DNA of 64,000 nucleotides from Candidatus Bathyarchaeia archaeon (GTDB taxonomy: Archaea; Thermoproteota; Bathyarchaeia; Bathyarchaeales; Bathycorpusculaceae), in the NCBI GenBank assembly GCA_049516875.1, contig JBEKSS010000007.1, forward strand, positions 1 to 64,000, given 5' to 3'. Made by a program: the position numbers and the translations under genes. The notes under the pieces were generated by a model that saw nothing but the letters and a program-made list of their open reading frames with translations, made no database searches and was not told where the DNA came from. Positions 1,224 through 37,906 of the stretch are shown here, piece after piece. The first letter of the stretch is position 1; each line of letters begins with the position of its first letter.

Positions 1224-1286
1224 AGAGACCGCGCGCGCGAGATGGAAAAAGAAACGGGGAGTAGTAGATGGAAAAGGTTTTTTGTA

Positions 1287-2768
1287 CTACTGTTTCGGAG
1301 CTTTGCTCTTACGGCGGAGCACAACAGCGCCGACGATTATCACGAGAACAGTCACGATGGTTATGATTAACAGTCCGCCCATTCCGCCGAGACCCCAAGC
1401 GTTCCCTGGAGAAGTCACAGCCGCGTACACTGTCAAGGTTGGATCGTGCACGACACGGTAGCCGCTGTACGTTGGATAGGCTACAACATAAAGATAATTG
1501 GCCCTTGTCACGTTCGTCAAGGTCGCCAGGGCCTGCAGGTACAAACCCGGAAACATGTTGTAAACCACCAACGGCAGAAACTTCAGCAAACCAAACTGCA
1601 GCTGAAACAAGTCCTCATTCCCGCCAAAACCGCCAAGACGAGCCGTCCGCTGCGTAGCATTGTACGTTACAGACTGCTGCTCCGAGCTGTCCTGCGTGTA
1701 ATTGAACAATTGATAAGTCTGCTTCGCACCAAAGTTGGCCGAAGCCACTCTCACTCCGTCGTCGGTCACGGTGTTTACGCTCGTGTTGTCCACGTCAACC
1801 TCCGAGTCAGTCACGTTTTGGCCGTTTGCCGTCCTGCTCAACGTCTGATGATCAGCCGTTATCGACGTCTGATAGTCTATGATGCTCATCTTGATGCCGT
1901 ACGTGTCCAGGAACTGGTAAATCGTGGTCGGGCCAAAATATGTAAACCCCAAAGGTCCATACGTGCCCGTGGCGTTGTAGCGCAACCAAACGAGTGGTAG
2001 CGGGTGCCAGAAAAGCTCCCTCATCCTGCCGATAACGTGGTTTTCGGTCAGGGTTGTCGTGTTCGTCGTCGGATCGATGTCTAACTTGTACGTGAACGTG
2101 AGCTCATCGTAAACGGTTATGGCTGACACGTAGTTTTCGCGGTGTGGGTTGCCCTCGTCAATGGAGGTTTGCCACCAGAACGCCGTCAAGTTCGTGTACC
2201 GCATGCCCCATGTCCAGGTTAAGCCGTTGTTGCTGTTCTGCAGGGCAATGTGCTCGGTGTGGCTGTTGAAGACGGGCAAGGTGATGTTGAGATCGCTGAT
2301 ACTCAGTCCCATGCTGAAGCTTGACCACAGATAGTCGTTTCGGTCAGGCGAGTTCGGAAATAGCGACGTGCTTGAATCGTTGAAGGCTAACAGCATGAGG
2401 AACGTGTTGCCGAGTATGACATCGCGCGACTGATTATCCGTTTTGTAGTGCATGATGAAGCTCTGCAGGGGCACCGTGAACGTTAATGCTCCGCCGAGAG
2501 TGATATTATCCAAGCCGGCGAACAGCAGTTTGAGTCCGCTGGTGTTTACGTAGGTCATGTAGAGCCAGGCGTGCCACGCGTCAGGCGGCGCCGTCATGTT
2601 GCGGGCAGCGGCGTACTCACGCGCATAATCAAAGAAGTCAATTGTCTTGGCAAAGCTCGTCTGTGTGAAGTCACTTGTCGTCAGCGAGTCAGCATATGAT
2701 ATAGGTACGATGACTGCTATGAAAGCAATAGTTACTAATATTAAAGTTAGCCAGCATTTGGTTTTCAT
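1287..2768 (-). CDS. Secreted/cell-surface glycoprotein with signal peptide and C-terminal TM anchor
   Basis: Hydrophobic N-terminus, many N-x-S/T sequons, C-terminal TM followed by RRKSK. Confidence 0.75.
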   Translation of the reverse strand: MKTKCWLTLILVTIAFIAVIVPISYADSLTTSDFTQTSFAKTIDFFDYAREYAAARNMTAPPDAWHAWLYMTYVNTSGLKLLFAGLDNITLGGALTFTVPLQSFIMHYKTDNQSRDVILGNTFLMLLAFNDSSTSLFPNSPDRNDYLWSSFSMGLSISDLNITLPVFNSHTEHIALQNSNNGLTWTWGMRYTNLTAFWWQTSIDEGNPHRENYVSAITVYDELTFTYKLDIDPTTNTTTLTENHVIGRMRELFWHPLPLVWLRYNATGTYGPLGFTYFGPTTIYQFLDTYGIKMSIIDYQTSITADHQTLSRTANGQNVTDSEVDVDNTSVNTVTDDGVRVASANFGAKQTYQLFNYTQDSSEQQSVTYNATQRTARLGGFGGNEDLFQLQFGLLKFLPLVVYNMFPGLYLQALATLTNVTRANYLYVVAYPTYSGYRVVHDPTLTVYAAVTSPGNAWGLGGMGGLLIITIVTVLVIIVGAVVLRRKSKAPKQ

Positions 2769-2974
2769 AACTTCACCATCATGCAACTAACGCTATATAT
2801 GTCTTACAGCTGATCGATACTGTTAAGTTATTTGACCCAGCCTACTAGAGTTCTGTTTGCAGCTTTGTTACGGGTACTGTTAAGCTGCCCAAAAATCAGA
2901 TTCGTAAAATCTATTTTTGGTATCGTTAACTTTTCGTCTGTTTTTGGGGGCATAGTGTAGGGTATTGCTCCCAC

Positions 2975-3454
2975 TCACATATTTTTAATCCACTCTATAA
3001 TTGATTTACGCCTAGGGACCATGGTGAAACCCAATATCGATGCGAACAGTATGGCGGCTATCATGAGCATGTAGTCAGTTGTTGAATGCAGATTGTTGAC
3101 AAGTGTAGGGTAATCTCTCGTAACAAAGTAAGGTTCTGGCCAAATAGCAGCCCAAGCAGCAAAAGCTAGATACAAGGCCATTAGCAACCCCCCCACCATA
3201 CAAAGTAACAGCAGAAGTTTTTCCCACTCTTTCACTTCCTTGTCTCCAAATCTTATCCAGGCGCTGATAGAGCTGTAGAGAATAGTAATAACCAAAAGGC
3301 CCAAGCTAGCGTTAACATTTGGTCCTGGTTGCGTATAATATATGATTTGAGAAGGGAGATATACAAGCCAAATAGCAATGAGAAGAGCCAAGATTGAAAG
3401 TATGATGAGTGACACTCTTAGGAGAAGGCCTGATCGCAGTTTCATGTTCTCCAT
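2975..3454 (-). CDS. Hypothetical 4-TM membrane protein (passenger)
   Basis: ORF with four hydrophobic segments, low GC. Confidence 0.65.
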   Translation of the reverse strand: MENMKLRSGLLLRVSLIILSILALLIAIWLVYLPSQIIYYTQPGPNVNASLGLLVITILYSSISAWIRFGDKEVKEWEKLLLLLCMVGGLLMALYLAFAAWAAIWPEPYFVTRDYPTLVNNLHSTTDYMLMIAAILFASILGFTMVPRRKSIIEWIKNM

Positions 3455-3626: not shown

Positions 3627-3780
3627 GCTCGCCACCTTTCGTCAAATACCCTTTCTCTGACAGCCAACTCATTATTATTGTTCTTAGTGTGTCCGAACGG
3701 GTTTCGCCTATCGTGCCCACAAGCTCTTTGTTCAGGAGATCAGCAACATTTTCTGGGAGAGCAACTAGGACTTTTCTCAT
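3613..3780 (-). CDS. Ribbon-helix-helix (CopG-like) regulator
   Basis: MRKVLVALPENVADLLNKELVGTIGETRSDTLRTIIMSWL; ATGA overlap with transposase stop. Confidence 0.6.
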   Translation of the reverse strand: MRKVLVALPENVADLLNKELVGTIGETRSDTLRTIIMSWLSEKGYLTKGGEHGKE

Positions 3781-4055
3781 TTCATAATCGCCTCCACTGT
3801 TCTTTCTTCTTTCGTTTCTGTCTCAGGACTCGTAGCTTTGGTCAAAAGCTGAGTTTCATATCTTGTTGCTTCGTCTATCAAGCCTTTCCATGTGCTAGGT
3901 GCTTGTGCTCTTGCAGCTTGGGCAGGTGTTTTTCCGTTTAGGCTTTGGTGTGGTCTCACATAGTTGTAATGGATTGTAAATCCTTCCAATATTGACTTTG
4001 TAGAGTCGAAGCTTTTGAGTCCTCGCATAACTCTTGTTCTGTCTTTGACAGTACC
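3777..4055 (-). pseudogene. IS6-like DDE transposase, C-terminal fragment only
   Basis: GTVKDRTRVMRGLKS...GFTIHYNYVRPHQSLNGKTPAQAA; homology ends at the element boundary. Confidence 0.8.
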
Positions 4056-4287
4056 CAGCTGATCTGCAAAACAAAAAAACACGTCGACGCACTCGCAAGC
4101 ACAAGAATGAGTCAGAATCATCTCTACAGACAGTTCCAACCCAAAGCGTCAAACTCGGTTTGAGCTAGGCGAGCGCTTACGTGGGGATAAACCTCGCTTC
4201 AAGCAACCGGGACAGATTGGAACAAAAACGCGGGTGCCCTTTGGACTTACTTCGAGGCAGACAGGTGTTTTCGTTTTCATGGTTCTT

Positions 4288-9865: not shown

Positions 9866-10278
9866 GCGCTCTTTTCAGTTCGACCGATTTCACACTCGCA
9901 CGCTCAACTCTCATTACTGGTCATTCCAAAACAAAAAACTTGCTAAATAATGAAACTATCTTAGGATCACGCCGTTGCGCTTTTGATCTTTACCTACACT
10001 TCAATCTCCATGCTCGTGGGATTCTTCTTCAGCTTCATCTTCCTCTTCAATCTCGCCCGCACGCCAAGTTGTACCTCTCGGAGTTCATGCAGAAAATCCA
10101 GAAGAATAGCGTTCACGTGGAACTCTGGTCGGATGCCTTTGAAACATGCCCCATAGGTGATACGTGGTTTTCATGAGGCCTTGCGCGCAGGAGCGTCAAG
10201 GACTTTGTGGTTAAGACTGAATCCGCGCGCGCTCGTGGTGTAGTTTTGGAATAGTCGCCTCAAAACCATTACTCTCAT

Positions 10279-11625
10279 ATGCATAAAACAACAGTATTGA
10301 CGTGTCCAAGGATGTCCATCGCTGATCAGAACACTTTCGTGTTTATTTCAGGGAAGAACTGGAAACTGTCGCTAGCGGAGCTTGTTTCATTCTTAGAAGC
10401 GAGAAACTACAGGTTTGAGGTGTGCGAGTCTACAAAAGCGTTCTTTATCGTTAGCATCGACAAGAGTTTGAGTGCCTCAGCCATTGCTGATCTGGGTGGG
10501 ACCATAAAGATCGGCAGAGTGGCCACAAACGTTGCCACCCAGACGGTGGAAGAAGCTTTTCTTCAAAATGACAAAGAGGCTCAAGCGCAGGTCAAGATGA
10601 GTCTATTGTCAAGCGGTATAGTTGATGAAATGCTCGATACCTCATCTGGGAAATCTGTTTTCGGAGTAAGCGTATACTACACAGAACGGTCTTTCCATCC
10701 AGTTTCCAAAACCATGCAACGCTTTCTCGGAAGCTCTCTAAAACAGGAACTGAGAGCTCACGGCAGAAAATCAGGATTCATGGGCTTTCCTAAAAAAAGG
10801 CAGCAACCGCAACTGAGCCACATCGAGGTGCTAAGAAAAGGTTTAGTCGAAAGAAAAGCGGAAGTATTGTTCTGCATAGGCAAAAAACAAACGGCAATAT
10901 CCACTACTGTGGCCGTGCATAACCCCTTCGAATTCCAAAAACGCGACATAGGCAGACCAATCCAGCGTAAGATCTTTGCCATACCGCCACGTCTGGCAAG
11001 AATCATGATAAACCTGGCTTCCTGCACATCTGGAAAATTTCTGCTCGACCCATTCTGCGGAGTCGGCACAATCCTCCAGGAAGCACTCTTGGCCAGAGCA
11101 AAAGTGATCGGCATGGACCTGAACCCGTGGTGCGTCACAGCTTCTAGAGAAAACCTCGGCTGGCTCAAAAGAGAATACGCGCTAGAAGAAGCAGAATACA
11201 CGGTTCTGCAAGGAAACTCACGCAGGCTAACGAACAGGATTCAACAAGAAGTAGACTGCATAGCAACGGAACCCGATCTAGGTCCAGCACTGCGCCACAT
11301 TCCTACCACAGCCTACGCGACAAAAATCATTGACAAGCTTGAACCTTTGTACCATGATTTCTTAGAAGAGGCACACAGAATACTGAAAAAAGGGGGACGA
11401 TTGGTGCTCGTAACACCCTACGTCAAAACACGCTCAGGAAAACCAGTTACCCTGGACATTGAAGAGAAGGCCATGACCGTCGGCTTCAAACGAGTTTATC
11501 CATTTCAAGGAGAGTTCTTTGCCGGAAACAGTATTGCACACGAGAATCTGACCAGAATGGCATTTTTCGTTGATGTGGGAGAAAAGCACAAGATCGGACG
11601 AGAAATACACATTTTCCAGAAATAG
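10279..11625 (+). CDS. Trm11/TrmG10-like tRNA methyltransferase
   Basis: IPPRLARIMINL, LLDPFCGVGTIL; start uncertain. Confidence 0.75.
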   Translation: MHKTTVLTCPRMSIADQNTFVFISGKNWKLSLAELVSFLEARNYRFEVCESTKAFFIVSIDKSLSASAIADLGGTIKIGRVATNVATQTVEEAFLQNDKEAQAQVKMSLLSSGIVDEMLDTSSGKSVFGVSVYYTERSFHPVSKTMQRFLGSSLKQELRAHGRKSGFMGFPKKRQQPQLSHIEVLRKGLVERKAEVLFCIGKKQTAISTTVAVHNPFEFQKRDIGRPIQRKIFAIPPRLARIMINLASCTSGKFLLDPFCGVGTILQEALLARAKVIGMDLNPWCVTASRENLGWLKREYALEEAEYTVLQGNSRRLTNRIQQEVDCIATEPDLGPALRHIPTTAYATKIIDKLEPLYHDFLEEAHRILKKGGRLVLVTPYVKTRSGKPVTLDIEEKAMTVGFKRVYPFQGEFFAGNSIAHENLTRMAFFVDVGEKHKIGREIHIFQK

Positions 11626-11755
11626 GAAGAGAACGTCAAGCATGCATGTCATTCAGTTTGTTCAGTACGTGAAATATGGTGAGCGTGCGCTATAGCAGAC
11701 TTTCAACGCCATGCACGAAAGTGAATAGACCTGTTTTTGAGTTTAGCGCGCTTTG

Positions 11756-12720: not shown

Positions 12721-12930
12721 ACTAATCCCTCCCAAATCTTTTCCAAATCTAGTTTATTAGAACGTTAACTTTCATCGAAATCATTAGCCGATACTTCTAA
12801 GCTGATTCCATCCTCTAAAAGTCGCCTTACTTCATACTTATCTCTTGCCAATCTTTTTCCCCCTGTGCGCATCCAACTTGGATATTTTGGCGGTCTTGGC
12901 GGTCTTGGAGGTCGCATTCGATTAGCGCGC

Positions 12931-13094
12931 ATGGTCGTTCCTAAATTGGCTAAAAATGGTTTTTTATTCTTCTTTTGGGGTTTGGGAACGCTGTTGAACC
13001 TCGCGCAGGTTCATCTCTTCTCTGTAGCAGCCAGTCTGTCTGGAATTCAAGAGACGGAATTAAAACCATTTTTGACTATTTTCGGAACAGGCAT
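12931..13094. mobile_element. MITE related to IS at 36811-37900
   Basis: Imperfect terminal inverted repeats (25/33), flanked by GCGCGC and GCGC; ends match 37950-37996. Confidence 0.7.
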
Positions 13095-13211
13095 GCGCAC
13101 TTGAATCCGAACCGAATAGTCACCGTCTACGAGTTTAAGGTCTTGGGAATAGGAGTATATCAAAATTACTATATCCTTTTACCTATTAGATAGTCTAGAA
13201 GGTAATACCCT

Positions 13212-13535: not shown

Positions 13536-13577
13536 TGTAGATACATCTCCAACACTTCTTTGTCTGTTAATTCTTTA

Positions 13578-13620
13578 GGGTACTGTTAACTTCTCATGGG
13601 ATTGTCTGACGTGTTAACTG
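13578..13620 (+). mobile_element. Solo IS6-like end
   Basis: GGGTACTGTTAAC, same as 2872 motif, with a subterminal GTTAAC; no partner end seen. Confidence 0.45.
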
Positions 13621-13640
13621 TCGTGGGATGACGTAAGCTA

Positions 13641-14174: not shown

Positions 14175-14237
14175 ATTTGGTCTGTACGTAATTCAGAGTA
14201 CAAAGAACTTAAGTTTTTCTCAACTTTTTCGCGCGCG

Positions 14238-26824: not shown

Positions 26825-26972
26825 AGTGCACTGCGTGCACACGACGAGCCAACCTCTTTCCGACCTCTTAGTTCCCTACAGTCTCTCTGTTACGATATCA
26901 CTATTCAACCACTACTCTCATTTACATATTCATCAATTTAGGTAACACGATTTGGTTTTCTAAATTTCTAAT
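26825..26972. repeat. Non-coding repeat copy A, left part (continues at 27853-27960)
   Basis: Homologous to 30096-30140 and 30753-30960. Confidence 0.75.
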
Positions 26973-26986
26973 GCGCGCGGAATGTC

Positions 26987-27733
26987 CTATGTCTGTCTTA
27001 GAATCTCTTTTCCCATCAATTCTATCTCTTGAAGAGTAAACTGGATGTTAGATTTTCTTGTCACTATAAAACTCGGCAATTCTCCGATTTTCAATATGGG
27101 AAGAGTAGGATTGTTGATGTTCAAATCTGCATTTTGGTTTGCGAAGACAACAATTCCCTCAACCCACATCCTCCGAGATTTGAAAGTCTTCGAAGACTCT
27201 ATTACTCGTTTAATTCTCATGGAATTCCTCTTTGCTTGTTTGCTGGGGCTACCTAACTCGAAATGAATGAAGCGACTAAAACTTCCGGGTTTTTTATTTG
27301 TATATTGCCTAGTCCATTCGTCGCCATAGCAGGCTATCTTGCCACCATAGTTCTTGGTTTCTATTACAAAGATACCATTTGGTCCCAGAACAACGTGGTC
27401 AATGTTGCCATAGCCATCAGAAACCATAATGTCATTAATCAGGTAATATTCATCACTCAAAGTAGAAGAGAGAATTTTGCTGACCTTGTTCTCTCCTTCA
27501 TAACCTTGCTTGTAGCCAGAGTATTTTCGAAAGAAATAGAAAGCAAAGAAAAAAGGGAAGAACAGAAGCAATGCACGTGGGCCCTCATACCTGCCTACGT
27601 CGATGTATAAAGGTGAATGTGGAATATCCGATAGTATGATAACCGCGAACACAATTATGCAAAGGGCCATTATAGTCAGGTTCTGAATAGCTTTTCTTTT
27701 GAGGTAACTCCCTGACTCTTTCAAGACTTTCAT
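26987..27733 (-). CDS. NERD-domain nuclease-like protein with two TM helices
   Basis: G.EGE..V, IDHVVLGPNGIFVIETKNY, SPSKQ. Confidence 0.9.
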   Translation of the reverse strand: MKVLKESGSYLKRKAIQNLTIMALCIIVFAVIILSDIPHSPLYIDVGRYEGPRALLLFFPFFFAFYFFRKYSGYKQGYEGENKVSKILSSTLSDEYYLINDIMVSDGYGNIDHVVLGPNGIFVIETKNYGGKIACYGDEWTRQYTNKKPGSFSRFIHFELGSPSKQAKRNSMRIKRVIESSKTFKSRRMWVEGIVVFANQNADLNINNPTLPILKIGELPSFIVTRKSNIQFTLQEIELMGKEILRQT

Positions 27734-28226
27734 CGTGAAGACAACCTGGCAGATGCACATGGAGAAATTGATGTTCCATGTCCAAGTATTTTATATGTGC
27801 GGTATTGTTAGCCCAGCAGGTCACAATCTCCTTGTCTCTGAGAAGATGATGATTTCTAAATTTCTAATTTTCTAATCTAGGGAAGAACTAGAATTTCAGG
27901 TTTTTTCTCGAATAGAATTTAGAAAATCCCTTGAAATCAAAAACAAGAAAGAGCTGTCTTCAAACAATGAAGCGTCTCTTTGCAACCTCCCCTTAAGCTT
28001 CAACGACAGCAATCGCACAGTAGCACAAACACACAATCAACAAACAACAAAACATCAAACACACAAACACGAAACTTCGATGAAAACATTCTAAAGGGTT
28101 CATGGAAAGTGATGGTGTGTTTTCGGTTTTGGTTTGGGTCAGAGCTAGCGCGCGCACAGTGGCGCACACTAGCCCACGCATACGAACATGAGAATAAAAA
28201 AAGGTGGGAAATTCCCGACGGTTGAT

Positions 28227-28436
28227 TTAAGGTTCTCTTTTGACTACAAAGGCGATTTTGACAACGGCACGGTATTCCACGATCTTGTTCTTTTCTACTT
28301 TTGCCGTGCACCGCTTTACATAAACAGACTTTATGTTCCTAACCGTCTTGGCAGCTTCTGTAATTGCATTCTTTGTGGCGTCTTCCCAGCTTTTTGGTGA
28401 GCTACCTATCAACTCGACTACTTTTGCAACTGTCAT
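28227..28436 (-). CDS. Dodecin
   Basis: KVVELIGSSPKSWEDA...YRAVVKIAF. Confidence 0.92.
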   Translation of the reverse strand: MTVAKVVELIGSSPKSWEDATKNAITEAAKTVRNIKSVYVKRCTAKVEKNKIVEYRAVVKIAFVVKREP

Positions 28437-28587
28437 TTTGTCCAGGCTCCCTAATCTATAACTAGCAATGTTCCTTATTATTTTGTTCCCAGGCAAAAGC
28501 GCGCGCGCAAATCGTCACTGTCGATTGATTAAAATAGTTTTCAGAGAATCAAAACCAAGGTGAGAGGGGGGTGAAAAATCGACAATC

Positions 28588-28779
28588 ATGACAGTAGAAC
28601 TTGACTTAGATCGAATGGAGAAAATGAAGCAACAAGTCTTGAAAACCATTCAAAGAATCGTGGATGAATATGGAAACGTGTCTATCATGGAATTGGAGTT
28701 GGCGTTGATAGAAGGACTTGCAAAAGTGAGAGAAATCGGCATGAAACAAACGCAAGAAGAAGATGAGAGTGTCGTCTAG
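28588..28779 (+). CDS. Small hypothetical protein
   Basis: ORF with upstream GGGGGTGA SD-like sequence. Confidence 0.55.
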   Translation: MTVELDLDRMEKMKQQVLKTIQRIVDEYGNVSIMELELALIEGLAKVREIGMKQTQEEDESVV

Positions 28780-28920
28780 AAAAAGAGCCGCAATGTTCTA
28801 TGGGTATTTCAAAACGTGGAAAACCCCATATAGCATAGCATAAGGGAGAATCAGTCAGCACGAGCAACTATAAACTTAAAAGGAAATGCAGGCGAACCTA
28901 GTTAGCGAAGGTAGAACAGA

Positions 28921-29265
28921 ATGGATTTCGTTGCGTTACTGATTCAGATTGTCGTAGGGGTCATCATTATCGCGCCAATTCTCTGGCTGGCTGGGAGAGC
29001 ACTATCTGGGAAAGACAAAGCAAAGTTCACGGATGCAATATGGATAGTGGTTCTTGGAACAGTAATAGGTGCGGTAGTCGGCGCTTTTGTTGGCGGCTTG
29101 ATAGCGGCACTCATCATGTTCATAGTCTGGCTTGCACTGATTAAACACTTCTTCGACTGCGGATGGTTAAAGGCACTGGCGATAGCTATTATTGCAGTGA
29201 TAATCTTCATAATCATAGTCGCTGTACTGGCAATAATTGGGTTCGGACTGAAACTCTTGCTATAG
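28921..29265 (+). CDS. Small 4-TM membrane protein
   Basis: Hydrophobic; LIKHFFDCGWLKA motif. Confidence 0.75.
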   Translation: MDFVALLIQIVVGVIIIAPILWLAGRALSGKDKAKFTDAIWIVVLGTVIGAVVGAFVGGLIAALIMFIVWLALIKHFFDCGWLKALAIAIIAVIIFIIIVAVLAIIGFGLKLLL

Positions 29266-29571
29266 CCTCTGACATCGTAATCTTGGGCCCACCCTTTTTT
29301 TTAACCTGCTGAACAATAGAAAACTACGTTAGGAACGTCGAATGCTCTGCAACTCGATCGATCGAGTGGTGTTGTTAGAGCATGCAGCTTGAATTGGGCT
29401 GTTCTGCCACGTTGGAAACTCGTAAAAGAATGCTGGTTAAAACGCTACGCTAAGATCTTAATGTTTGCTTTTTCGCAGATCTCTTCGAGCTTTTGCGGTG
29501 AGAAGTCTGTGTAATGCCTTGCTAGTACCGATTTTGGCACTCTTCCACAAAAAGCATCGACATACGTAAAC

Positions 29572-30057
29572 CTACAAAGCGAGAATGTCATCCGGTAAAT
29601 TGTCAATTCCTCCGAATTCTTTGACAGCAATCGACTTGATTCTTTTCTTCAGCTCTGGCTTGATGTGCGTGTATGTCATTTCGCTTTCTCCACCAATACT
29701 CTCACAGTTGTCTTCAACTATAATGTCTGGCATAGCTCTCTCTGCAACATCTTTGTATTCTTCACCTTCCACTCGAAAGAGTAGTTGATCCTTTGGAAAA
29801 TTGTGCTTCTTGAGAACACTTCTTATCCGTCCAATCTCAGCAGGCTTCGTTCGAGACGTCAAATACACTATTTTTGCACCTTGACTTTTCCATAAGTGCA
29901 ACTTCTTCGCTCCATTCCCCACCGGAATGTAAGTTCCATACTCGCGAATTGAGGGTTCTTTGCCCTCGAGAACTTGCTTCACGATGTCCTCTCTTGAAAG
30001 ACCTTTGGCCCCACTGTGCATAATCAGTGTTCCTTCAGTGAACACAAGAATCTTCAT
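29572..30057 (-). CDS. HAD-like hypothetical protein
   Basis: LVFTEGTL, YLTSR, IIVEDN (degenerate HAD motifs). Confidence 0.65.
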   Translation of the reverse strand: MKILVFTEGTLIMHSGAKGLSREDIVKQVLEGKEPSIREYGTYIPVGNGAKKLHLWKSQGAKIVYLTSRTKPAEIGRIRSVLKKHNFPKDQLLFRVEGEEYKDVAERAMPDIIVEDNCESIGGESEMTYTHIKPELKKRIKSIAVKEFGGIDNLPDDILAL

Positions 30058-30169
30058 AGGTCTATCAACTATATCTGGTCGAATTAAAAAGTAATGTGCA
30101 CCGAGTGCACAACGACTGTCTACCTCTTTCTAACCTCTCTGTTGCAGCAATAATGCTTGCTTGTTTGCT

Positions 30170-30697
30170 CTAGCGAGTTTCATTCATTTTCAACAGATAT
30201 TCTGCAAGTGCTGAGAAGGTCAGATAGCGCCAGTGACTCTTATCATTCAAGTCGATTATGAAGCTCTTGATATCATCAACTTTCAAATGTGGAAATGTTT
30301 TGATGTATTCTTTAAACCGTACATATTCAGAATAGTCCTTGTGAAGAGCAATAGCCACGTTGTCAGCACCGCAGCCCATTCCATTCATGGCAATAATCGT
30401 TGGGGACGGATTCTTCTCTTCCAATTCGCGAGAATGCCTCAGTATATCCTCGAAAATCTCTTTTGATGCTGGTTCACTCAGTTTAGCAAAGGTTATCGAC
30501 ACTATTTGAAAACCGAGTCTTACATAATCGGGTATCATCGTGTATTCCCTGATCAAGCCTTGCTTCTCAAGCCTCTGAATAAGCCTACTAACCGTAGGCT
30601 GGGAAACCCCAATTACCTTGGCTAATTCTCTATCGCTCCTGCGGCTATTCTTAAGGAGTTCAGAAATGAGTTTCAGTTCAACATCCTTCAAAAGCAT
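30170..30697 (-). CDS. Lrp/AsnC-family regulator (paralog of 26126..26632)
   Basis: ELLKNSRRSDRELAKVIGVSQPTVSR. Confidence 0.9.
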   Translation of the reverse strand: MLLKDVELKLISELLKNSRRSDRELAKVIGVSQPTVSRLIQRLEKQGLIREYTMIPDYVRLGFQIVSITFAKLSEPASKEIFEDILRHSRELEEKNPSPTIIAMNGMGCGADNVAIALHKDYSEYVRFKEYIKTFPHLKVDDIKSFIIDLNDKSHWRYLTFSALAEYLLKMNETR

Positions 30698-30752
30698 TCC
30701 CTATAGCTTCTTAGGGACGTTTCAATATTTAAAGGCGGCCCAAAGCACGCTA

Positions 30753-30960
30753 GGCCAACCTCTTTTCAACCTCCTAGTTCTCTCAAGCCTCTCTGTTACA
30801 ATATCACTATTCAACCTCAGCACTCATTCACACTATCACCAACTCGGGTAACGCATTTAGTTTTTAAATTCCAATTTTCTAAGCCAGGAGAAGAAGCAGG
30901 GTTTCCAAGATTTTTATTTGATTAGAATTTTGAAATTAGACAATTGCCTTGATTTCGAAC
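30753..30960. repeat. Non-coding repeat copy B (first part at 30096-30140)
   Basis: GCCAACCTCTTT..CTCTCTGTTAC.ATATCACTATTCAACC shared with 26848-26910. Confidence 0.75.
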
Positions 30961-31098
30961 AAGTTGTAGATACAGTGTTTACAGATCTAGAGCTTATATG
31001 CAGCGAGGTATGAAAGAACAATATCCCCTCAAGTGATTTGAAAAAAGAATATGGAAACTAGGAGAAAACCAATCCCAGATTAGAGCTGTTGGCTTGAT

Positions 31099-31248: not shown

Positions 31249-31434
31249 CTCTCTCAACTCCTTCATGGTTGCTGTGCAAAAATCACTTCTTACACGCTTC
31301 GTTCACCGTTCACATCGCCGCTTATAAACAACATGTCTAGAATCATAAAGTCGAGACCTATAGAAATCAAATTCGCACGCGTTCTACTTTGCCACGATGA
31401 GGAATGTGCGAACGAAGGCGATAGGATGAAGTTC

Positions 31435-31992
31435 TTATTCGTAGAATATGAGGTTTTGTTCCTCCAAGCTTTCGTGAAGCTTATGCACTGCGTCATAAAC
31501 GTCCTGTTCTTTCTTCGCTCCGGTGCAAACAAGGTTCCCGCTTGCGAATATCAGTATGACCACTTTGGGCTCGTCCATCCTGTAGATCAATCCTGGAAAC
31601 TGCTCCGGCTCATACATGGTTTTTCCAAGCGTGCTCGCTTCTTCTAACTCTATCCTTCCGCCTAAGCTTGCGGAGGCAACAATGTTCTGAATCTTTAACT
31701 CCGGTTTGCTGATGATGATTATTCCGCCCTTTTTCAACTCTTTAACAACTGCCATAACAGCCCTGCGGGATTCCTGTTCCGATTTCGCTCCTGTGCACAC
31801 CATTTTACCAGAGTTGAAAATCAGCGTCGCCGTCTTCGGTCTTTTGAGCCTAAACACAAGTCCTGGGAACTGTTCCGGACGATACTCTACGCCTGGATAA
31901 CTCTTCACCACAGCGTTTAAGTCAATTTTCTGGTTTAGAGTGGCAGAAGCAACAACGTTTTGAATTTTTATTATTGCTTTAGTCTTCGGCAT
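31435..31992 (-). CDS. tbp: TATA-box-binding protein
   Basis: Two repeats NVVAS...YxPEQFPGL...LIF.SG..VCTGAK. Confidence 0.98.
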   Translation of the reverse strand: MPKTKAIIKIQNVVASATLNQKIDLNAVVKSYPGVEYRPEQFPGLVFRLKRPKTATLIFNSGKMVCTGAKSEQESRRAVMAVVKELKKGGIIIISKPELKIQNIVASASLGGRIELEEASTLGKTMYEPEQFPGLIYRMDEPKVVILIFASGNLVCTGAKKEQDVYDAVHKLHESLEEQNLIFYE

Positions 31993-32101
31993 TTGATACC
32001 GCTTCTTGTAGTGTAGCGGATGCTTAAATACCCTTTATATGCGCGCGCTAGAGCGAGAACTTAAGTAACTTGGCTAAGATCTATCAGAGACGTGACTGAC
32101 T

Positions 32102-32902
32102 ATGTCTTCGTCCTCTGACCGTGTTGTGAAAGACTATTATGATGAGAAAGCTCAGACTTATGACGACTATTCGAAGCAGCTGTATTTCAAAGTGTACGAC
32201 GCAGCAACATGGAAAATCACTGAGCCTTATGTTCCACGAGACTCAAAGGCATGTGTGCTCGATGCTGCTGGCGGGACCGGAAAATGGAGTGTTCCCATGG
32301 CAAAGTGCGGTGCACGCGTCGTGCTAGCAGACCTTTCCGACGGAATGCTGGACGTGGCAAAAGAGAAGATTGCTAAGGAAGGTCTGCAAGACCGCATAGA
32401 AACCAGGAGGTGCGACCTTCGCAAGCTGGACTTCGGAGACGAATCCTTCGACATGGTGTTCTGTGATCATGCCCTATGCTTCATCAAAGAACAAGATACA
32501 GTGGTGAGCGAGCTCGTCAGAGTTCTGAAGAAGGGGCATCGTCTGATTATCTCTGGACAGAACCGTTATGTGCTGTCCCTTTCTATTGTTCAGGAAGACC
32601 CGTCCCTAGCCTCCAGAATATTGGCGAAAGATTCACCGTTCGACATGCTTGACCGCGTGAAGGTCTATGCACTGTCACCAGACGAGTTTAGACAGCTGCT
32701 TGAAGACAACGGCGTCAGGGTGGAGAGAATGTTCGGCAAAGTCTTCACTATGCCCCTCGGTCTGTCTCTTGAGAGACTGCAAGGAGAGACGTTCAGCAAG
32801 GCCTTTGTCGACAAACTCTTGAAAATCGAGTACAGCATGCTTGAGAGGTCAGACGCTGTGCCTTTAGCATCACACATTCAGGCAGTCGGATGCAAACGAT
32901 AG
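32102..32902 (+). CDS. Class I SAM-dependent methyltransferase
   Basis: VLDAAGGTG, DLSDGML, FDMV. Confidence 0.9.
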   Translation: MSSSSDRVVKDYYDEKAQTYDDYSKQLYFKVYDAATWKITEPYVPRDSKACVLDAAGGTGKWSVPMAKCGARVVLADLSDGMLDVAKEKIAKEGLQDRIETRRCDLRKLDFGDESFDMVFCDHALCFIKEQDTVVSELVRVLKKGHRLIISGQNRYVLSLSIVQEDPSLASRILAKDSPFDMLDRVKVYALSPDEFRQLLEDNGVRVERMFGKVFTMPLGLSLERLQGETFSKAFVDKLLKIEYSMLERSDAVPLASHIQAVGCKR

Positions 32903-33008
32903 GGCCCAGAATAGTTCGCCCTCATGTTTAACCCGGACCGTTCACCTTAGCGCGCGCCAGAGATTCATGAAAACTTGGAAACGATTTATCGCTTTTCATC
33001 TTGTTGGT

Positions 33009-33905
33009 TTAAATCACCACGCCCATCCGGTGAAGCTCGTCCAACAGGCTTGTCTTCGTCTGTTTGAGTCTCTGCCTCTGTTCCACGTATTCGTCGCCAC
33101 TTATCTTGCCAGCTCGGAAGTCTTGGTCGAGTTTTTCCAATTGTGCATCTATGTCGGTCAGTCTCGATTTGAGCTGGTCAACGTATGAGACAGCCGCAGT
33201 CGGTTCTAACGTTTGAGCAGGCGTCAAAGCCGCTTTTATGGTGCCGTCTTCGATGCGTAGTATCCTGTCTCCTTGCCTAGCAACGTTTGGGTCATGAGTA
33301 ACCATCACGATGGTCTTGCCTAGTTCTCGGCTTATTTTCACCAAGTAGTCGACCACGATTTTGACGTTTGTAGTGTCTAATTCTCCTGTTGGCTCGTCGG
33401 CTAGGATTACTGGGGCGTCGTTGGCCAGAGCCGCAGCCATGGTTATGCGCTGCTGTTCTCCGCCGCTTAATTCGTCGGGTTTATGATCCGCTCTCTGGGT
33501 TAGGCCTACTATTTCAAGCAGTTCTTTGACGCGCTCTTTTCGTTTGCTTCTTCCCGCGCCCATGGCTATCATCGGCAGCTCGACGTTTTCAGCAGCGGTC
33601 AGCGTGGGAATCAGGTTGAGGGTTTGGAAAATGTGTCCCACGGTTTTCCTTCGATAATCAACGAGCTGAGAGGTTGACAGTGCCGTGACTTGTGTGTCAC
33701 CCACTGCAACAGAGCCTGCGGTTGCCGTGTCCAGTCCTCCTATTATGTTTAGCAGCGTAGTCTTTCCGCTTCCGCTTGGTCCTATGATTGAGACCACTTC
33801 GCCCTCTTTTACCGACATGCTCAGTCCGCGTAGGGCCTGAACTTCCACTTTGCCCAGATGATACACTTTAATCACGTCTTTGACGATTATTCCTGCACCT
33901 TTCAA
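33009..33905 (-). CDS. ABC transporter ATP-binding protein (LolD/MacB-like)
   Basis: [25 protein letters not shown]. Confidence 0.95.
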
Positions 33906-36742
33906 ACTTCTCGCACCGTCCTCTCCAACCTTGAACTGTATCTTTTTGCCATCAGAACGACCGGGATGATGGTTGACGCGAAAACTAGGATGAAAGAAAT
34001 GAACAGGGTCAAGACTGCATCAGGCGGAAAGACCATGTGCCTGCTCAAGGGAGTGACTGAATAGAAGGCGGCGTTCACAGCGTTGTTTGACGCAACTACT
34101 CCGCGCACCACTATGAGTCCCACAACCGTGCCTACGAGCACTGCGAATGTCACGACCGCCAGGTTCTCAGTGAGAAGCATGACGAGCAACTGCTTGAATG
34201 AGAGCCCCCGAACGCTCATGATTGACACCTCACGTTTCCTCTCTCTCAAACTGACCAACGTAACCAGGGCGGTTCCGATTGAAGCCGCCGCCACCATGAA
34301 AAGCACGCCTAGGCGCAGAACGTTGAACGAGCCCGTTATGGTAAGGTCGCTCTGTTGATTCGCGAGTTGCTCAGTCACAGAGGACACCGAGCTGACAGCG
34401 CTGATATCTAATCCGCGAATCTGATCCGCGACAGCCTTACTGTCCGTGCCGCCCTGCAACCTCATGAGTATTTTGGCCGAGGCCGAACCAACTAAATTTT
34501 CTATTGTCTGGTTGTAGAGTCCTTCTGGAACATAAGACCAGTACTGACCTGAAGTTTGTCCAGATTCGATTCCGAAAAACCCTACAACCCTCAACTCTTC
34601 CGTCTGCACTGCCCCCGTAGATGAGTCACCAAAAGTCACGGCGACGACATCGCCCACCTTCTTGTTAAGAGCGTTGGCCTGGTTAACATCCAAAATAACA
34701 GTGTAATTATTTGAACTCATGGTCTCAAAGGCTTTTTCAACTGGGCTGCCGCTGAACATATCGTCCTCATAATAGGCTGTGGAAAGCCACGTTTTCGGGT
34801 TTACCGCCCGGAACTGCATTCCCTGTTCGTTTCCTCCAAGACCGGCCGAACCCGTGAAACTGTATTCCGCAGTTATAGATTGAATGTGCGACACGTTGCT
34901 GCTGACGGCACTCATTATCTGCGACGCATTTAAGGGCGAACTTAATGTGAAACTGACGTCCGAGCCAACGGCAAAGCGAGCTTCACGAACAACGAAGTCT
35001 TGTTCACTCGCCAGAGTTCCAACTACCTGAAAACTGTACCCAATGATGAAGGCTATCAGAAATGCGACAGCCGCGGCGCGAGCAGGGTTTCTCTGAACAC
35101 TCTTCGTGGCAAGCTTGCCTAAATCACCCAAAAACCTAGAAGCCCTTGTCATGATTTCTTGGAACTTAAACGATCCGCTTATGAAGATTTTTGTGAAACC
35201 CCAGAAGAACAGAAAGGGCCCAACGTAAGTCAGTGCGAAATCGACGAGGACAAATATCTGTAACAGAAGGAAGACGAAAACGTTCGCAGGCGCTCTTACG
35301 ACCGCCTGAACATTAATGCCTAGAAGAAACACGATAATCTTATAAGAACCGAGAAGAAGGGCAGTCCAAGGCCACAGTCGTCTGTACGGTTTAGCCTCTT
35401 CCACCTGCACGTATTCTCTCAAAGCGTCGACTGCGGCCATCTTTGAAGCTCTTCTTGCTGACCGATAAACCGAAAGAAAGGTGATGATGGCGGCGAAAAC
35501 CATGGTCAAAATGATTGTGTCAGGGCCCAGTACAAGCGCGCCGATGAATTGGCCGCCTGTGGCCGCAGCAAACCATGGAGTAACAGTGAAACTCAACACT
35601 ATGCCCAGCAAACCTCCAAGTAGCCCTATTAGTGCGGCCTCGAACAGAAACATCCACCAGAGTTGTCGCCTGGAAAACCCTTTGGTCAGTAGGAGACCGA
35701 TCTCACGGCGCCTTAGGTTGAAAGACACGTCAGAAACTGTTGAGCCCACGTACCAAGCCACAAAAAACACGGGCAACGATGCTATGATGAAGGTAGCACG
35801 CATCGCAAACGAGGTACTCTGAAAACTGTCCAGCGGATAGGCCAGATTGTCTTGAGCAGACAAACCAAAAGGTGAGACCTCTTCGTTAATCTGCGCCGTA
35901 ACCGCTGCAAGCTTGCTGGCTGAACCAGGGATGTCCCATGGACTGATAAGGCTCGAGCGGTCAACAAAAACGAGAATTGTGGTGCTGAACGGATTAGAAT
36001 ATTCAGGCGAAGAATCGTGCACGAAGTCGAGCAGCTTGGCAAAAGTTTTCTCCCAACTAGTGATCAAAAGATTCTGTGGATAAAACTGGTACTGGTTAAG
36101 AGATGCTATAGAAAGCTCCTGTTCACTGAGATGAACAAAACCAACCACTTTGAGATTGACAACAAATGATGATGTTTGTGACATGGCAGAATTTTCTTCC
36201 CAAACACCCTGCTGGAATACGTTGGCATTCGCGGTGACATTTATCGGAATGATGTCCCCGACGCGAATCTTTCCAGCGTCAGGCGAGTCTGCCCAAACAT
36301 AAGTTTCATTTTCCCCTAACGCGGATGTGTTACAGACAAGAGAATGCTCAGATATCCCAATCAAATTGGTGGAAGTCTTGAAATTAAACTCTTGAACAAA
36401 ATTATAATATGCATAAGTAGAAATTGCTTCAACTTGGGTTACGCCTTGCACACTTGAAATCGCGCTAACTGCATCTGAAACATTTTTGGAGGACAACGCG
36501 ATATTCGCTGTCGGGGGAAAGGTGTAGTAACTGTAACCCACGGAAATGTCAACTGGAATTTTGTTCAGAGTCTGATTGAGGGCCTGCCACGCAGCTGTAT
36601 CCGCGCCCACGTTGATGCCCGCGAAAAATGTTGAGGCCAAAACGATGCCTAGCAACAAGGCTATGAACAGCCGCCATGAACGAACAAGCCTCTTAAAAGT
36701 GTACGAAAATGACAATTTCAACCAAATAACAGTTTGACTCAA
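33902..36742 (-). CDS. FtsX-like ABC permease
   Basis: Two FtsX units (RRREIGLL..G; ERKREVSIM..RG). Confidence 0.9.
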   Translation of the reverse strand: MSQTVIWLKLSFSYTFKRLVRSWRLFIALLLGIVLASTFFAGINVGADTAAWQALNQTLNKIPVDISVGYSYYTFPPTANIALSSKNVSDAVSAISSVQGVTQVEAISTYAYYNFVQEFNFKTSTNLIGISEHSLVCNTSALGENETYVWADSPDAGKIRVGDIIPINVTANANVFQQGVWEENSAMSQTSSFVVNLKVVGFVHLSEQELSIASLNQYQFYPQNLLITSWEKTFAKLLDFVHDSSPEYSNPFSTTILVFVDRSSLISPWDIPGSASKLAAVTAQINEEVSPFGLSAQDNLAYPLDSFQSTSFAMRATFIIASLPVFFVAWYVGSTVSDVSFNLRRREIGLLLTKGFSRRQLWWMFLFEAALIGLLGGLLGIVLSFTVTPWFAAATGGQFIGALVLGPDTIILTMVFAAIITFLSVYRSARRASKMAAVDALREYVQVEEAKPYRRLWPWTALLLGSYKIIVFLLGINVQAVVRAPANVFVFLLLQIFVLVDFALTYVGPFLFFWGFTKIFISGSFKFQEIMTRASRFLGDLGKLATKSVQRNPARAAAVAFLIAFIIGYSFQVVGTLASEQDFVVREARFAVGSDVSFTLSSPLNASQIMSAVSSNVSHIQSITAEYSFTGSAGLGGNEQGMQFRAVNPKTWLSTAYYEDDMFSGSPVEKAFETMSSNNYTVILDVNQANALNKKVGDVVAVTFGDSSTGAVQTEELRVVGFFGIESGQTSGQYWSYVPEGLYNQTIENLVGSASAKILMRLQGGTDSKAVADQIRGLDISAVSSVSSVTEQLANQQSDLTITGSFNVLRLGVLFMVAAASIGTALVTLVSLRERKREVSIMSVRGLSFKQLLVMLLTENLAVVTFAVLVGTVVGLIVVRGVVASNNAVNAAFYSVTPLSRHMVFPPDAVLTLFISFILVFASTIIPVVLMAKRYSSRLERTVREV

Positions 36743-36810
36743 ATAGCCAATTTCAATGTTTCGGTTCGAATGCTCAATGCATTTTCATTTGGAACATCAC
36801 AAACGCGCGC

Positions 36811-37900
36811 TGCCTTGTCTCTTTATTATGTGTTGAAGTAGGTTGGTGAGACTGCCTTGTCTGGTCTTCTGAGGTTTTCTGCCGCTTCTCTGTTTAGAAC
36901 TAGGCACAACAAGCTGTAAAGCGCGTAGGAGGCAACGTTTCTTACGCCTCTGACCTTGTTTATGGCCAAGCTGTACTGCGTCTTGAGGAAGCTGTAGACC
37001 GCTTCAATGTGAGGCCTCTTATGATACTCCTTCTTCTGGTCATCTGGCCCGTAGGTTCGAAACTTCTTGTCCACCCTAAGGATGTCTCTTACGCCACGTT
37101 TCTGGTTAACGGGATAAGGAATCACTGCGGCGTCAACGGCCCTTCTGAGTTTGCCGTCGCTGTATTGGCTGTCAGCTATCACGCTTCTCAATCTGGCTGC
37201 AGACCGTTTGAGAATCAGCTTCGTCTTCTCCAGCATGTTCAGCGAGTGTTTCTTCTCGTTCTGGTTGGCAGAAGCAAAAGCGCAGGTCAACGGAAGCATA
37301 GTCTGAGAATCGATGCACAAGTGAAGCTTGTAGCCCAATCCGAATGTTCTGCCTGCTCTTCCAACCCTGGCTTCCTCGTCGGAATAGCCTTTCTTGTTAT
37401 CCAGTGGATGGCGCGTGCTCCAAGCCTTTATGAACGAAGCGTCAAGAACGGCATCAACGTCTTTTGCGTCGTTCCGTTTCAAGAGTTTAACAACTTTCTG
37501 TTCTATTATTCTGGTGAGGTTGTCTTCCCCGACTTTTCGGATGAACCTGCTGAGAACGCTTCTAGGATAGCCCGTCTCGCCTGTTTTGATTAGGCACAGT
37601 TTTCTGAGCCGTATGTCTGTGTCGAGTAGTCTTGTCATTTCTCTCAGGCTGCGAACACCCTTCATTCGCATGACGATGAAGGATCTGAAAACGCCCAATG
37701 GGTTTCTGGGAGGCCTCCCAGGTCCAACCGTGTGGAAGCATCTGAGCAACGCTGCTTTAGCAAAGCTTAAGTCTACGTTTCTGAAGAGGGTTTCTAGGGT
37801 CTCGTGTTCATCTTGTCCCGCTAGGATTCACCTCCTAAGCCTGGACGTAACTCACTAAATACGAGACCCCAACTGCATTAATTAATTTAGGGACAAGCCA
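36811..37900 (-). mobile_element. Insertion sequence (IS5/IS4-like DDE) in GCGCGC target
   Basis: TIRs TGCCTTGTCTCTTTATTA / TAATTTAGGGACAAGCCA; GCGCGC directly outside both ends. Confidence 0.85.
36826..37749 (-). CDS. DDE transposase
   Basis: LDASFIKA, GYKLHL, ADSQY, Y.KR..IE; frame stays open to ~37827. Confidence 0.9.
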   Translation of the reverse strand: MLRCFHTVGPGRPPRNPLGVFRSFIVMRMKGVRSLREMTRLLDTDIRLRKLCLIKTGETGYPRSVLSRFIRKVGEDNLTRIIEQKVVKLLKRNDAKDVDAVLDASFIKAWSTRHPLDNKKGYSDEEARVGRAGRTFGLGYKLHLCIDSQTMLPLTCAFASANQNEKKHSLNMLEKTKLILKRSAARLRSVIADSQYSDGKLRRAVDAAVIPYPVNQKRGVRDILRVDKKFRTYGPDDQKKEYHKRPHIEAVYSFLKTQYSLAINKVRGVRNVASYALYSLLCLVLNREAAENLRRPDKAVSPTYFNT

Positions 37901-37906
37901 GCGCGC

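Follow-up and report, generated by a model that had tools for sequence, protein, structure and literature searches.

We have analyzed a 64,000-nucleotide stretch of DNA from a peat archaeon, Candidatus Bathyarchaeia (the window; positions 1-64000 of contig C7 of the 2.43-Mb assembly G000), in which short runs of alternating G and C lie among accessory genes, together with IS-A, an insertion sequence (IS) that the window carries and that we assign to the IS5 family. A tract is here a maximal alternating-GC run, and a long run is one of at least 8 nt. Our reading, to which we give a probability of roughly one half, is that solo tracts are scars of tip-to-tip joining in IS5-family ISs and miniature transposable elements with inverted repeats (MITEs), reused later as microhomology in rearrangements. 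Genes were called with our own crude open reading frame (ORF) and hexamer caller (2343 calls in G000, 81% coding). For comparison, 41 genomes, G000 among them, were searched for GCGCGCGC; G001 to G004 are congeners of G000, G021 belongs to another genus and served as outgroup, and G018 represents another genus of the same family. Metagenome contigs were compared with the window for six runs in which half or more of the words sampled from window 12-21 kb were present; this comparison is based on the matches listed, and stretches with no listed contig cover were left uninterpreted.

The window contains 36 tracts of at least 6 nt. Exactly 16 of these are 8-10 nt long, as a first-pass annotation made from the letters alone had counted, and all lie within 1230-32957, with starts at 1230, 10224, 14230, 14339, 14625, 15520, 17439, 18142, 18853, 18882, 18961, 24278, 28148, 28499, 32041 and 32950. 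The "about nine" runs of 6-7 nt in the same annotation were an undercount, and 14 are present between 1 and 38 kb. No run of 7 nt or more occurs beyond 37906, and the 41-64 kb region holds six 6-mers (five coding by our calls), so that the core lacks long runs, as had been noted. The accompanying estimate of less than one long run per 64 kb by chance also holds, the Markov expectation being well under 1. Fourteen of the 16 long runs are intergenic by our crude calls. The half of the window that carries them is a mosaic (1-40 kb), in which blocks such as 4.2-9.07 kb, 10263-11640, 15607-16209, 16789-17406 and 32961-36772 match the congeners; the block at 4.2-9.07 kb contains no tract. At 40386-56000 lies a core block, with CODH/ACS-type and LonB genes among others, that all four congeners share collinearly at 79-88% identity and in which every alternating-GC run is shorter than 7 nt. 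The contrast between accessory and core DNA drawn in the first pass is thus borne out.

The leftmost tract (1230-1239, 10 nt, intergenic) lies 6 nt from the end of an intragenomic repeat. A 9-nt tract at 10224-10232 is situated 46 nt upstream of an RMKL-like/UPF0020 methyltransferase gene (10279-11625, Pfam), and the block homologous to the congeners sets in at 10263. A copy of the MITE family that we call MITE-A, with the structure TA-GCGCGC-ATGG...GGCAT-GCGC and its right tip truncated to GCGC, occupies 12923-13101. It adjoins a 2.4-kb block (13099-15523) that is present in G000 and missing from a strain variant, with breakpoints in the MITE tip (13095-13098) and in a 10-nt tract (15520-15529). 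Within this block are tracts of 8 nt (14230-14237), 10 nt (14339-14348) and 9 nt (14625-14633), the last two of which exactly bound a captured 276-bp fragment of a repeat-protein gene on the plus strand (14349-14624). An intragenomic repeat ends at 0 nt from the left one of this pair. The fragment is matched over 14348-14625 in G001, G002, G003 and G004 and has partners at G000 C14:35710-36146; in relatives its unit forms tandem arrays inside longer genes. A chimeric ORF (14497-14778, plus strand) starts in the fragment, reads through the tract at 14625-14633 and enters a remnant of a different reading frame, the C-terminal part of which resembles a ribbon-helix-helix protein by eye, with no family found in Pfam.

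A 7-nt tract at 16783-16789, upstream of the first of two GNAT acetyltransferase genes (16809-17408 and 17544-18044, Pfam), is the exact start of homology with G001, G002, G003 and G004. At 17439-17446 an 8-nt tract stands some 10 nt off the left edge of a segment of 2.2 kb specific to G000; GTGCGC is found nearby in G002. Further 8-nt tracts at 18142-18149 and 18853-18860 enclose a gene (18346-18810) with weak Pfam hits, and are followed by tracts of 9 nt (18882-18890) and 8 nt (18961-18968). The last of these is the left boundary of a tract-bounded cassette on the minus strand (18969-19427) with a gene of 83 aa and no Pfam family (19019-19270); 434 bp of this cassette are 96.8% identical to G000 C1 at about 83.6-84.0 kb, where the copy is likewise tract-bounded and the flanks are unrelated. 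An 8-nt tract at 24278-24285 lies 21 nt from the end of homology with G002. Two tracts, of 8 nt (28148-28155) and 10 nt (28499-28508, a population length variant), flank a dodecin gene (28227-28496, Pfam). The 8-nt tract at 32041-32048 marks the right edge of a multi-copy TBP gene block (31426-32039; gene 31435-31992, minus strand, Pfam TBP, 3e-62). Between it and the next 8-nt tract (32950-32957) stands an S-adenosylmethionine (SAM) methyltransferase gene (32102-32902, Pfam). Homology with G004:C1 starts right after that tract, at 32961, and G004 has no tract there. IS-A itself lies on the minus strand at 36804-37906 with a transposase gene of 307 aa (36826-37749), and its tip is abutted by a decayed fragment (37907-38003) of FamC, a 303-bp MITE derived from IS-A.

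All six cases in which consecutive tracts were said to bracket a single gene agree with our gene calls. The names given to the GNATs, dodecin and the SAM methyltransferase stand; the PEMT label is weak because the gene at 18346-18810 has ICMT/DUF1295 hits at E ~5e-4 only. With 30 tracts among 46 called genes in 1-38 kb, such single-gene bracketing needs no cassette system.

Some features of the window are set down here as observations in their own right. TBP genes are present at six or more loci in G000 (also C1:367309, C10:116646-117201, C16:11854, C14:41160 and the contig ends of C8 and C16) and at eight or more in G004, at 81-89% nucleotide identity; a copy adjoins an IS-A copy in G001:C6, G004:C32 and G004:C39. 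The flanks of TBP copies end at GC tracts, with breakpoint positions that vary and no fixed site. The block at 24306-24531 is conserved in G002, G003 and G004, and its minus strand reads like the 3' half of a tRNA (T-arm, acceptor stem, CCA). ARAGORN found one tRNA and the Rfam scan of the window tRNA-Val only, and neither reported anything at 24306-24531; the block may be an intron-bearing or split tRNA, and the 6-7-nt runs inside it, at 24336 and 24372, are probably structural. An unrelated transposase fragment on the minus strand (3777-4139; rve_3 integrase core, 2e-8) has copies in G004.

The excess of tracts is genome-wide and clade-wide and is not peculiar to the window. In the whole G000 assembly GCGCGCGC occurs 447 times, against 24.6, 24.1 and 30.7 expected from Markov models of orders 1, 2 and 3, and CGCGCGCG 223 times against 21-28; the remaining 8-mer palindromes and alternating words are near expectation. 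There are 416 long runs. By length, the counts are 503 (6 nt), 204 (7), 240 (8), 112 (9), 56 (10) and 5 (11), with one run each of 12, 13 and 14 nt; 212 of the 240 8-mers are in the G...C register. The TA that the first-pass annotation saw beside many tracts recurs genome-wide: on C-ending sides the next base is T in 66%, followed by A in 41%, and TA stands to the left of 103 and to the right of 92 of the 416 tracts. Flank information is about zero beyond 2 nt on either side. The unit is therefore (T)A-GCGCGCGC-T(A), which is not part of a longer repeat, and a longer repeat or MITE hidden around each tract was rejected on the same grounds, a MITE family taking only 50 of 2246 flanks. Most long runs in G000 are intergenic (326 of 416, or 78%, against an intergenic fraction of 19%), in agreement with the first-pass impression from the window. 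All four classes of intergenic orientation hold tracts, roughly in proportion to intergenic length, and the median distance to a gene end (101 nt) is shorter than that to a gene start (140 nt). Tract counts per 20-kb bin are strongly over-dispersed, with a variance of 11.0 about a mean of 3.3 and no tract in 28 of the 110 bins.

Several simple accounts were rejected on these counts. A promoter or terminator element does not agree with the lack of a fixed distance to starts or stops and the use of all four orientations. Bias from restriction enzymes that recognize GCGC or GCGCGC was set aside since the recognition site is not avoided: GCGC occurs 8218 times (about 8000 expected) and GCGCGC 1412 times (440-500 expected). 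A dinucleotide microsatellite does not account for the bump at 8 nt, the cut-off after 10 nt or the predominance of one register, and the single length variant, of 4 nt, is in a diverged strain.

Among the 41 genomes, the five of the window's genus (G000-G004) contain 168-646 copies of GCGCGCGC each and G021 contains 439; apart from G018, the remaining 34 have 0-53. Full-length members of the clade formed by IS-A and a second family, IS-B (at least 43% amino-acid identity, several at least 86%), were found in six of the 41, namely G000-G004 and G021, all of them tract-rich; fragments occur in G024, which has 30 GCGCGCGC. The surroundings of 79 IS-A loci in other species, 1.15 Mb in all, contain 147 copies of GCGCGCGC where 8.7-12.2 would be expected; runs of 8, 9 and 10 nt number 85, 45 and 17 with none of 11 nt or more, and the A...T flank is present in 54 of 147, a preference like that in G000. 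A separate case is G018, with 227 GCGCGCGC, 209 of the backwards control CGCGCGCG and no match to the IS-A transposase; its abundance may have a different cause, for example base composition or true CG repeats.

Tracts do not keep their positions between genomes, and they cluster in variable DNA. Over 235 kb of G000 syntenic with G002:C5, aligned intergenic DNA has 2 long runs in 18.4 kb (0.11 per kb) and unaligned intergenic DNA has 18 in 19.8 kb (0.91 per kb; binomial P = 4e-4), an 8-fold difference in density; aligned coding DNA has 1 in 135.8 kb (0.007 per kb). When 1.13 Mb of G002 was compared with G000, a single alignment spanned only 16 of 235 G002 tracts and 13 of 414 G000 tracts, or 27 distinct loci. 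The tract is kept in both genomes at 3 of these, and the others are clean insertions (3), other indels or replacements (7) and substitutions (14). Conservation in place, which the first-pass annotation had said would refute its proposal if seen in syntenic relatives with no link to indels, is thus rare, and the link of tracts with the mosaic that it proposed is supported by the density contrast and by alignment breakpoints. Of 993 ends of G000-G002 alignments, 20 lie within 3 nt of a long run (2.6 ± 1.9 in shifted controls) and 85 within 3 nt of a tract of at least 6 nt (9.1 ± 3.0); with random positions in the same intergenic region as control, the figures are 67 and 14.6 ± 3.6. For alignments of at least 300 bp, 31 of 760 ends are on tracts other than MITE tips, and at about 10 of the 31 G002 also has the junction tract with different DNA beyond, as judged by eye.

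Repeats within G000 behave in the same manner, with 86 of 2356 ends within 2 nt of a tract (21.6 ± 4.0 in controls). Both ends are at tracts in 21 repeat loci, 16 of which are MITE-A or MITE-B. The non-MITE duplicates with tract boundaries amount to about five families, one of them gene-bearing; they include the pair formed by 18969-19427 and C1 at ~84 kb, a 197-bp family (C12:23677, C2:131210, C2:246871 and C7:96423) and C12:2098-2415 when compared with G002. Nothing here shows the undescribed, dedicated gene-shuffling system that the first-pass annotation had put forward as a candidate. In a further comparison, G000 C3:12.1-13.2 kb and G002 C2:24.1-25.3 kb, a region with two tracts and a MITE-B, are 97-98% identical; because the two species are otherwise ~85% identical, this suggests a recent exchange of a mobile region.

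The junctions are also present in independent data. Three other runs from different studies (X2, X3 and X4) have contigs that span many of the window tracts with 0 differences, and the objection that the junctions are assembly or amplification chimeras is therefore removed. Run X3 also contains an alternative junction of the kind the first-pass annotation had proposed to look for, from 13094 to 15524 (depth 117). It skips 2429 positions, has GC at both ends and a 4-letter overlap, and fuses the intact MITE tip CAT-GCGCGC to the sequence 3' of the tract at 15520-15529. In a diverged X3 strain the 10-mer at 28499 is shorter by 4 nt (depth 145 of 339). Other joints tabulated in this comparison are off tracts (17415 to 20506, 26871 to 30753 and 30818 to 31015). 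A 10-nt tract with identical flanks on both sides is found at the end of contig C7 (239467) and at the start of C8 (54); the two contigs overlap and are probably adjacent, the assembly having broken near a tract.

The transposase of IS-A matches PF01609 (DDE_Tnp_1, 6.1e-14) and PF05598 (DUF772, 8.6e-9), each above the cut-off, in keeping with the assignment of IS-A to the IS5 family. Its ends, (C)GCGCGC-TGCCTTGTC...GACAAGCCA-GCGCGC, are the same in the window, at four other loci in G001, G003 and G004, and in G021. A further 44 full copies in other Bathyarchaeia metagenome-assembled genomes end in GCGCGC, with few tips mutated or shortened. The terminal inverted repeats have 38-nt arms that are 74% complementary, and GCGCGC-TGSCTTGTCCC is found at both ends in at least 44 copies. 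IS-A occurs at several unrelated loci across genomes; G000 has one full copy. IS-B (43-45% identity; G002, G004 and G021) ends in GCGCGC-ATGCGTGTTCCTAAATT. The MITEs, whose non-coding status was judged from size only, share these ends. MITE-A has 12 full copies of 174-191 bp in G000, of the form (TA)GCGCGC-ATG...CAT-GCGCGC(TA), and its inverted repeat GCGCGCATGCKTGTTCCTAAATT matches IS-B of G002. MITE-B has GCGCGC ends and an inverted repeat that resembles that of IS-B, and the 303-bp MITE has GCGCGC ends and carries the IS-A repeat. TA is present on both sides of about 7 of 11 MITE-A copies; TA is itself a palindrome, and a duplication is therefore indistinguishable from a target preference. 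At one locus (L120), to the right of an IS-A copy, three successive tips with a 12-nt period, GCGCGC-TTTCCA-GCGCGC-TTTTCA-GCGCG, follow directly past the IS end.

Whether the terminal GCGCGC is part of the element or a target split by insertion can be judged from more distant relatives. In a 36%-identical IS of G029 the tip position is occupied by CGTGC, which is not palindromic and is inverted in both arms, and is therefore an inverted repeat and not a duplication. Relatives of the IS in G020 and G007 end in GCGCGC in genomes that hold just 6 and 3 GCGCGCGC. From these comparisons GCGCGC probably belongs to the element tip. The first-pass annotation had listed three candidate mechanisms, and the one linked to an IS fits best, although its description of that IS as GCGC-targeting is not upheld if GCGCGC is, as seems likely, part of the terminal inverted repeat. 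The other two, breakage at Z-DNA-prone DNA and addition of GC to ends without a template, have no specific support.

We propose that tracts would originate from the self-complementary terminal hexamers of this clade-specific group, which comprises IS-A, IS-B and at least three derived MITE families. GCGCGC is its own reverse complement, and two inverted tips are therefore also direct repeats. The body of an element could be lost by joining of tip to tip, either through microhomology-mediated end joining after excision or through replication slippage across a hairpinned element, and the residue would be a solo tract of (GC)3-5, with 6-, 8-, 10- and 12-mers expected from overlaps of 6, 4, 2 and 0 nt, respectively. 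Scars would accumulate where elements are tolerated, in the intergenic DNA of accessory regions with fast turnover. Tips and scars together would then form a set of identical GC-rich microhomologies among which deletions, insertions and re-joinings take place, and re-joining of this kind would place tracts at the borders of gene blocks with unrelated flanks. The element ancestry of the solo tracts, the tip-to-tip step and the enzyme that would carry it out are the inferred parts of this scheme.

The length spectrum fits two 6-nt tips joined at an overlap of 6, 4 or 2 nt and almost never at none. Solo tracts have the outside-type flank (A/T, TA) seen in MITEs, and remnants of the inner inverted repeat beside them are at the random level (0.4% and 0.3%). 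The X3 variant, in which a MITE tip is joined to the tract at 15520-15529 through a 4-nt overlap, is an example of microhomology use. Between G000 and G002, three clean insertions of 11-15 nt have created tracts with a flanking duplication of 3-4 nt. These are GTA-GCGCGCGC-GTA in G002, AAG-CGCGCGCT-AAG in G000, and ATT-AGAGCGCGCGCT-ATT in G002, the last in frame within the window gene at 58118-58954, where G000, G004 and the outgroup G021 have no insert. The residue of one of them, C-GCGCGC-T, equals two fused IS-A tips. All three empty sites are free of GCGC, which led us to reject a GCGC target with a 4-bp duplication as the source of the 8-mers. A comparison of paralogues for insertions yielded 11 cases, none of them clean. 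As for the joining step, loss of ISs through 2-4-bp microhomologies has been described, and the primase-polymerase (PrimPol) known as IS excision enhancer (IEE) joins ends with 4- and 6-nt microhomology and not with 2-nt (bioRxiv 10.1101/2023.06.07.543989). At the same codon position of the window gene (~58249), G001 has an unrelated 18-nt insert that contains GCATATGC; the site could be a hot spot, or the insert could be a decayed tract altered by four transitions. This gene has a weak presenilin-like hit, below the cut-off.

A number of results weigh against this interpretation. At 31 full IS or MITE copies of G000 and of 1.13 Mb of G002, no empty site with collinear flanks was found (0 of 31), and an allele series of occupied site, empty site and scar was found for no site in the genomes compared. 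IS-A has no target-site duplication outside the GC run in 5 + 44 copies, with one hidden in the run possible; the observed 6+6 would also arise from insertion into a pre-existing (GC)4, the 4-bp GCGC duplication then lying concealed in the run. The 3-4-nt duplications of the clean insertions agree with neither element type, MITE-A having a TA flank and IS-A no duplication. Fourteen of the 27 tract differences in alignable, mostly coding DNA are plain substitutions (mostly in CG register or coding). Around the 416 solo tracts, flanking direct repeats of 2-4 nt are not above control, and TA on the left is independent of TA on the right (both in 27, 22.8 expected), so that most tracts are not simple footprints in continuous DNA. 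Together with the lack of inner-repeat remnants, these results imply that most tracts now lie between unrelated DNA, which fits later recombination at tips and scars. Scars in G000 outnumber elements by more than 15:1 (416 against one IS-A and ~25 MITEs). Tracts are also few, 5 in ~146 kb of flanks, in one genome that carries at least 7 IS-A copies, and G018 has its 227 GCGCGCGC with no IS match. Finally, the co-occurrence of IS and tracts rests on two genera, and related genomes are not independent observations.

The same data can be read with the order of events reversed. IS5 inserts at a 4-bp palindromic target, and pre-existing (GC)4 palindromes, made by some other process, could be the sites into which the IS5-family elements insert centrally with a 4-bp GCGC duplication, the GCGCGC at each element end then being the split target. 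Cut centrally with a 4-bp stagger, GCGCGCGC would yield precisely the 6+6 of most element ends (16 of 44 IS-A copies have it), and the sums of the two end runs (12, 13 and 14 nt in 18, 9 and 5 copies) parallel the solo 8-, 9- and 10-mers (240, 112 and 56). Such insertion would also agree with the lack of any other visible target duplication, with the resemblance of MITE TA flanks to solo-tract flanks, with the single GCGCGC shared by IS-A of the window and the MITE fragment abutting it, and with the known parallel of ISs that insert into repetitive extragenic palindromic (REP) sequences. We consider it unlikely, however, given the inverted, non-palindromic CGTGC tips in G029 and the GCGCGC tips of the relatives in the tract-poor G020 and G007. 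End runs of 7 or 8 nt are equally well explained by a chance neighbouring G or C on a base-composition estimate, an unknown generator of hundreds of tracts would be needed, and insertion would have to spare 6- and 7-mers. More doubtful is the idea that solo (GC)4 tracts are still active in cis, as pseudo-ends for the IS5-family transposase or for a host end-joining enzyme or as sites for another recombinase, such that the DNA between any two tracts (accessory genes, gene fragments or extra TBP copies) is excised and re-inserted. It would account for the tract-bounded duplicates with unrelated flanks, the gene fragment 14349-14624 exactly bounded by two tracts, the 2.4-kb block present or absent between strains and the breakpoint tracts shared by two genomes with different DNA beyond (~10 of 31, by eye), but passive recombination at microhomologies yields all of these patterns too. 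Just one of the roughly five non-MITE families bears a gene, the breakpoints of TBP copies vary in position, no recombinase accompanies the tracts (a search of G000, G003 and G021 gave no member of the Y1/RAYT family), and three de novo insertions into tract-free sites would go unexplained.

Selection on the motif itself appears very improbable. On that account AGCGCGCGCT would be the binding site of a dimeric protein, or a structural or regulatory element prone to form Z-DNA, kept in the manner of the cyanobacterial HIP1 palindrome, and the perfect 8-10-bp palindrome with its palindromic flank preference, the strongly intergenic location and the proximity to gene ends are as it would predict. 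Yet a tract is retained in both species at so few of the 27 alignable loci, is 8 times rarer in conserved than in variable intergenic DNA, has no fixed distance to starts or stops, occurs in all four orientations about in proportion to length, and is missing from most related genera. The least probable account, in our estimation, is that end joining adds or copies alternating GC as filler between broken ends, so that tracts mark repair junctions. The 3-4-nt duplications at the clean insertions look as they would for filled-in staggered breaks with filler between, breakpoints do fall at arbitrary positions, and left and right flanks are independent; against this, filler explains neither the GCGCGC ends of every IS and MITE family, those in tract-poor genomes included, nor the sharp 10-nt limit on length, and we know of no enzyme that adds alternating GC (no search aimed at one was made). 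We retain element scars reused as microhomology as our preferred reading of the solo tracts.

Bathyarchaeia, which are uncultured, abound in peat and sediments and have large accessory gene pools. Provided that the scar reading is right, a single 8-bp word would record both transposon traffic and rearrangement junctions; it would tell accessory from core DNA without any comparison (~0.9 and 0.1 tracts per kb of intergenic DNA), and palindromic IS tips could seed microhomology throughout a genome. Were tracts instead targets or active sites, their generator would be an unknown process, and if mobilisation were true the clade would have a self-seeding, sequence-tagged system for shuffling cassettes. 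A practical hazard is that short-read contigs tend to break at tracts.

At the level of abstracts, we found no description in the literature of a GCGCGCGC excess, of Bathyarchaeia MITEs or of archaeal IS5 footprints, and a text search of PMC13343696 gave no mention of Bathyarchaeia or footprints in the text so covered. A close parallel among known words is HIP1, GCGATCGC, described as cyanobacterial, lineage-specific, at least 15-fold over-represented and able to exceed one motif per gene (PMC5861425). Both words are perfect 8-bp palindromes that start with GCG and end with CGC, and like HIP1 the octamer GCGCGCGC is over-represented genome-wide (447 against 25-31). Unlike HIP1, tracts sit between genes in 78% of cases, favour variable DNA and seldom persist at the same place; they lack its retention at orthologous positions (3 of 27) and its presence in conserved genes (0.007 per kb of aligned coding DNA). 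HIP1 also occurs within coding sequence, and selection is reported to act on it. REP sequences and bacterial interspersed mosaic elements (BIME) are likewise abundant extragenic palindromes at points of rearrangement, with ISs at or in them (PMC2817692 and PMC12288879). REPs are imperfect palindromes of 20-40 nt with conserved flanks, whereas nothing is conserved past the two bases flanking a tract. The Y1 transposase associated with REPs (RAYT, PF01797) has 0 matches in G000, G003 and G021, and in view of this and of the missing 20-40-nt conserved palindrome a REP system was rejected.

Integron cassettes, like the genes here, are single genes between short palindromic sites in a variable array; the tract-bounded genes differ in lying on both strands, with sites of 8-10 nt without attC-like structure and unfixed breakpoints (no integrase search was made). 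Solo long terminal repeats (LTRs) provide an analogy only: in both cases a terminal repeat would be left after loss of the body, and remnants outnumber intact elements, but here the repeats are 6 nt long, microhomology would take the place of homologous recombination in the joining, and the elements concerned are archaeal DNA transposons. Nearly precise excision is known for Tn10 and Tn5. The nearest relatives of the proposed process are such losses of ISs by microhomology (Tn10 and Tn5, ISApl1 from Tn6330 and the IEE PrimPol system), in which the body is likewise lost through short end repeats with a small scar, and deletions next to the IS are common to both. The IEE system prefers microhomologies of 4-6 nt, as we propose here (bioRxiv 10.1101/2023.06.07.543989). 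The cases described for IEE concern IS3, IS1 and IS30, whereas the elements here belong to the IS5 family, and their excision is proposed from sequence. A further distinction is that the microhomology would here be supplied by the inverted repeat's own palindromic tip; for this reason every scar would have the same sequence, and scars could build up to hundreds of copies in one genome.

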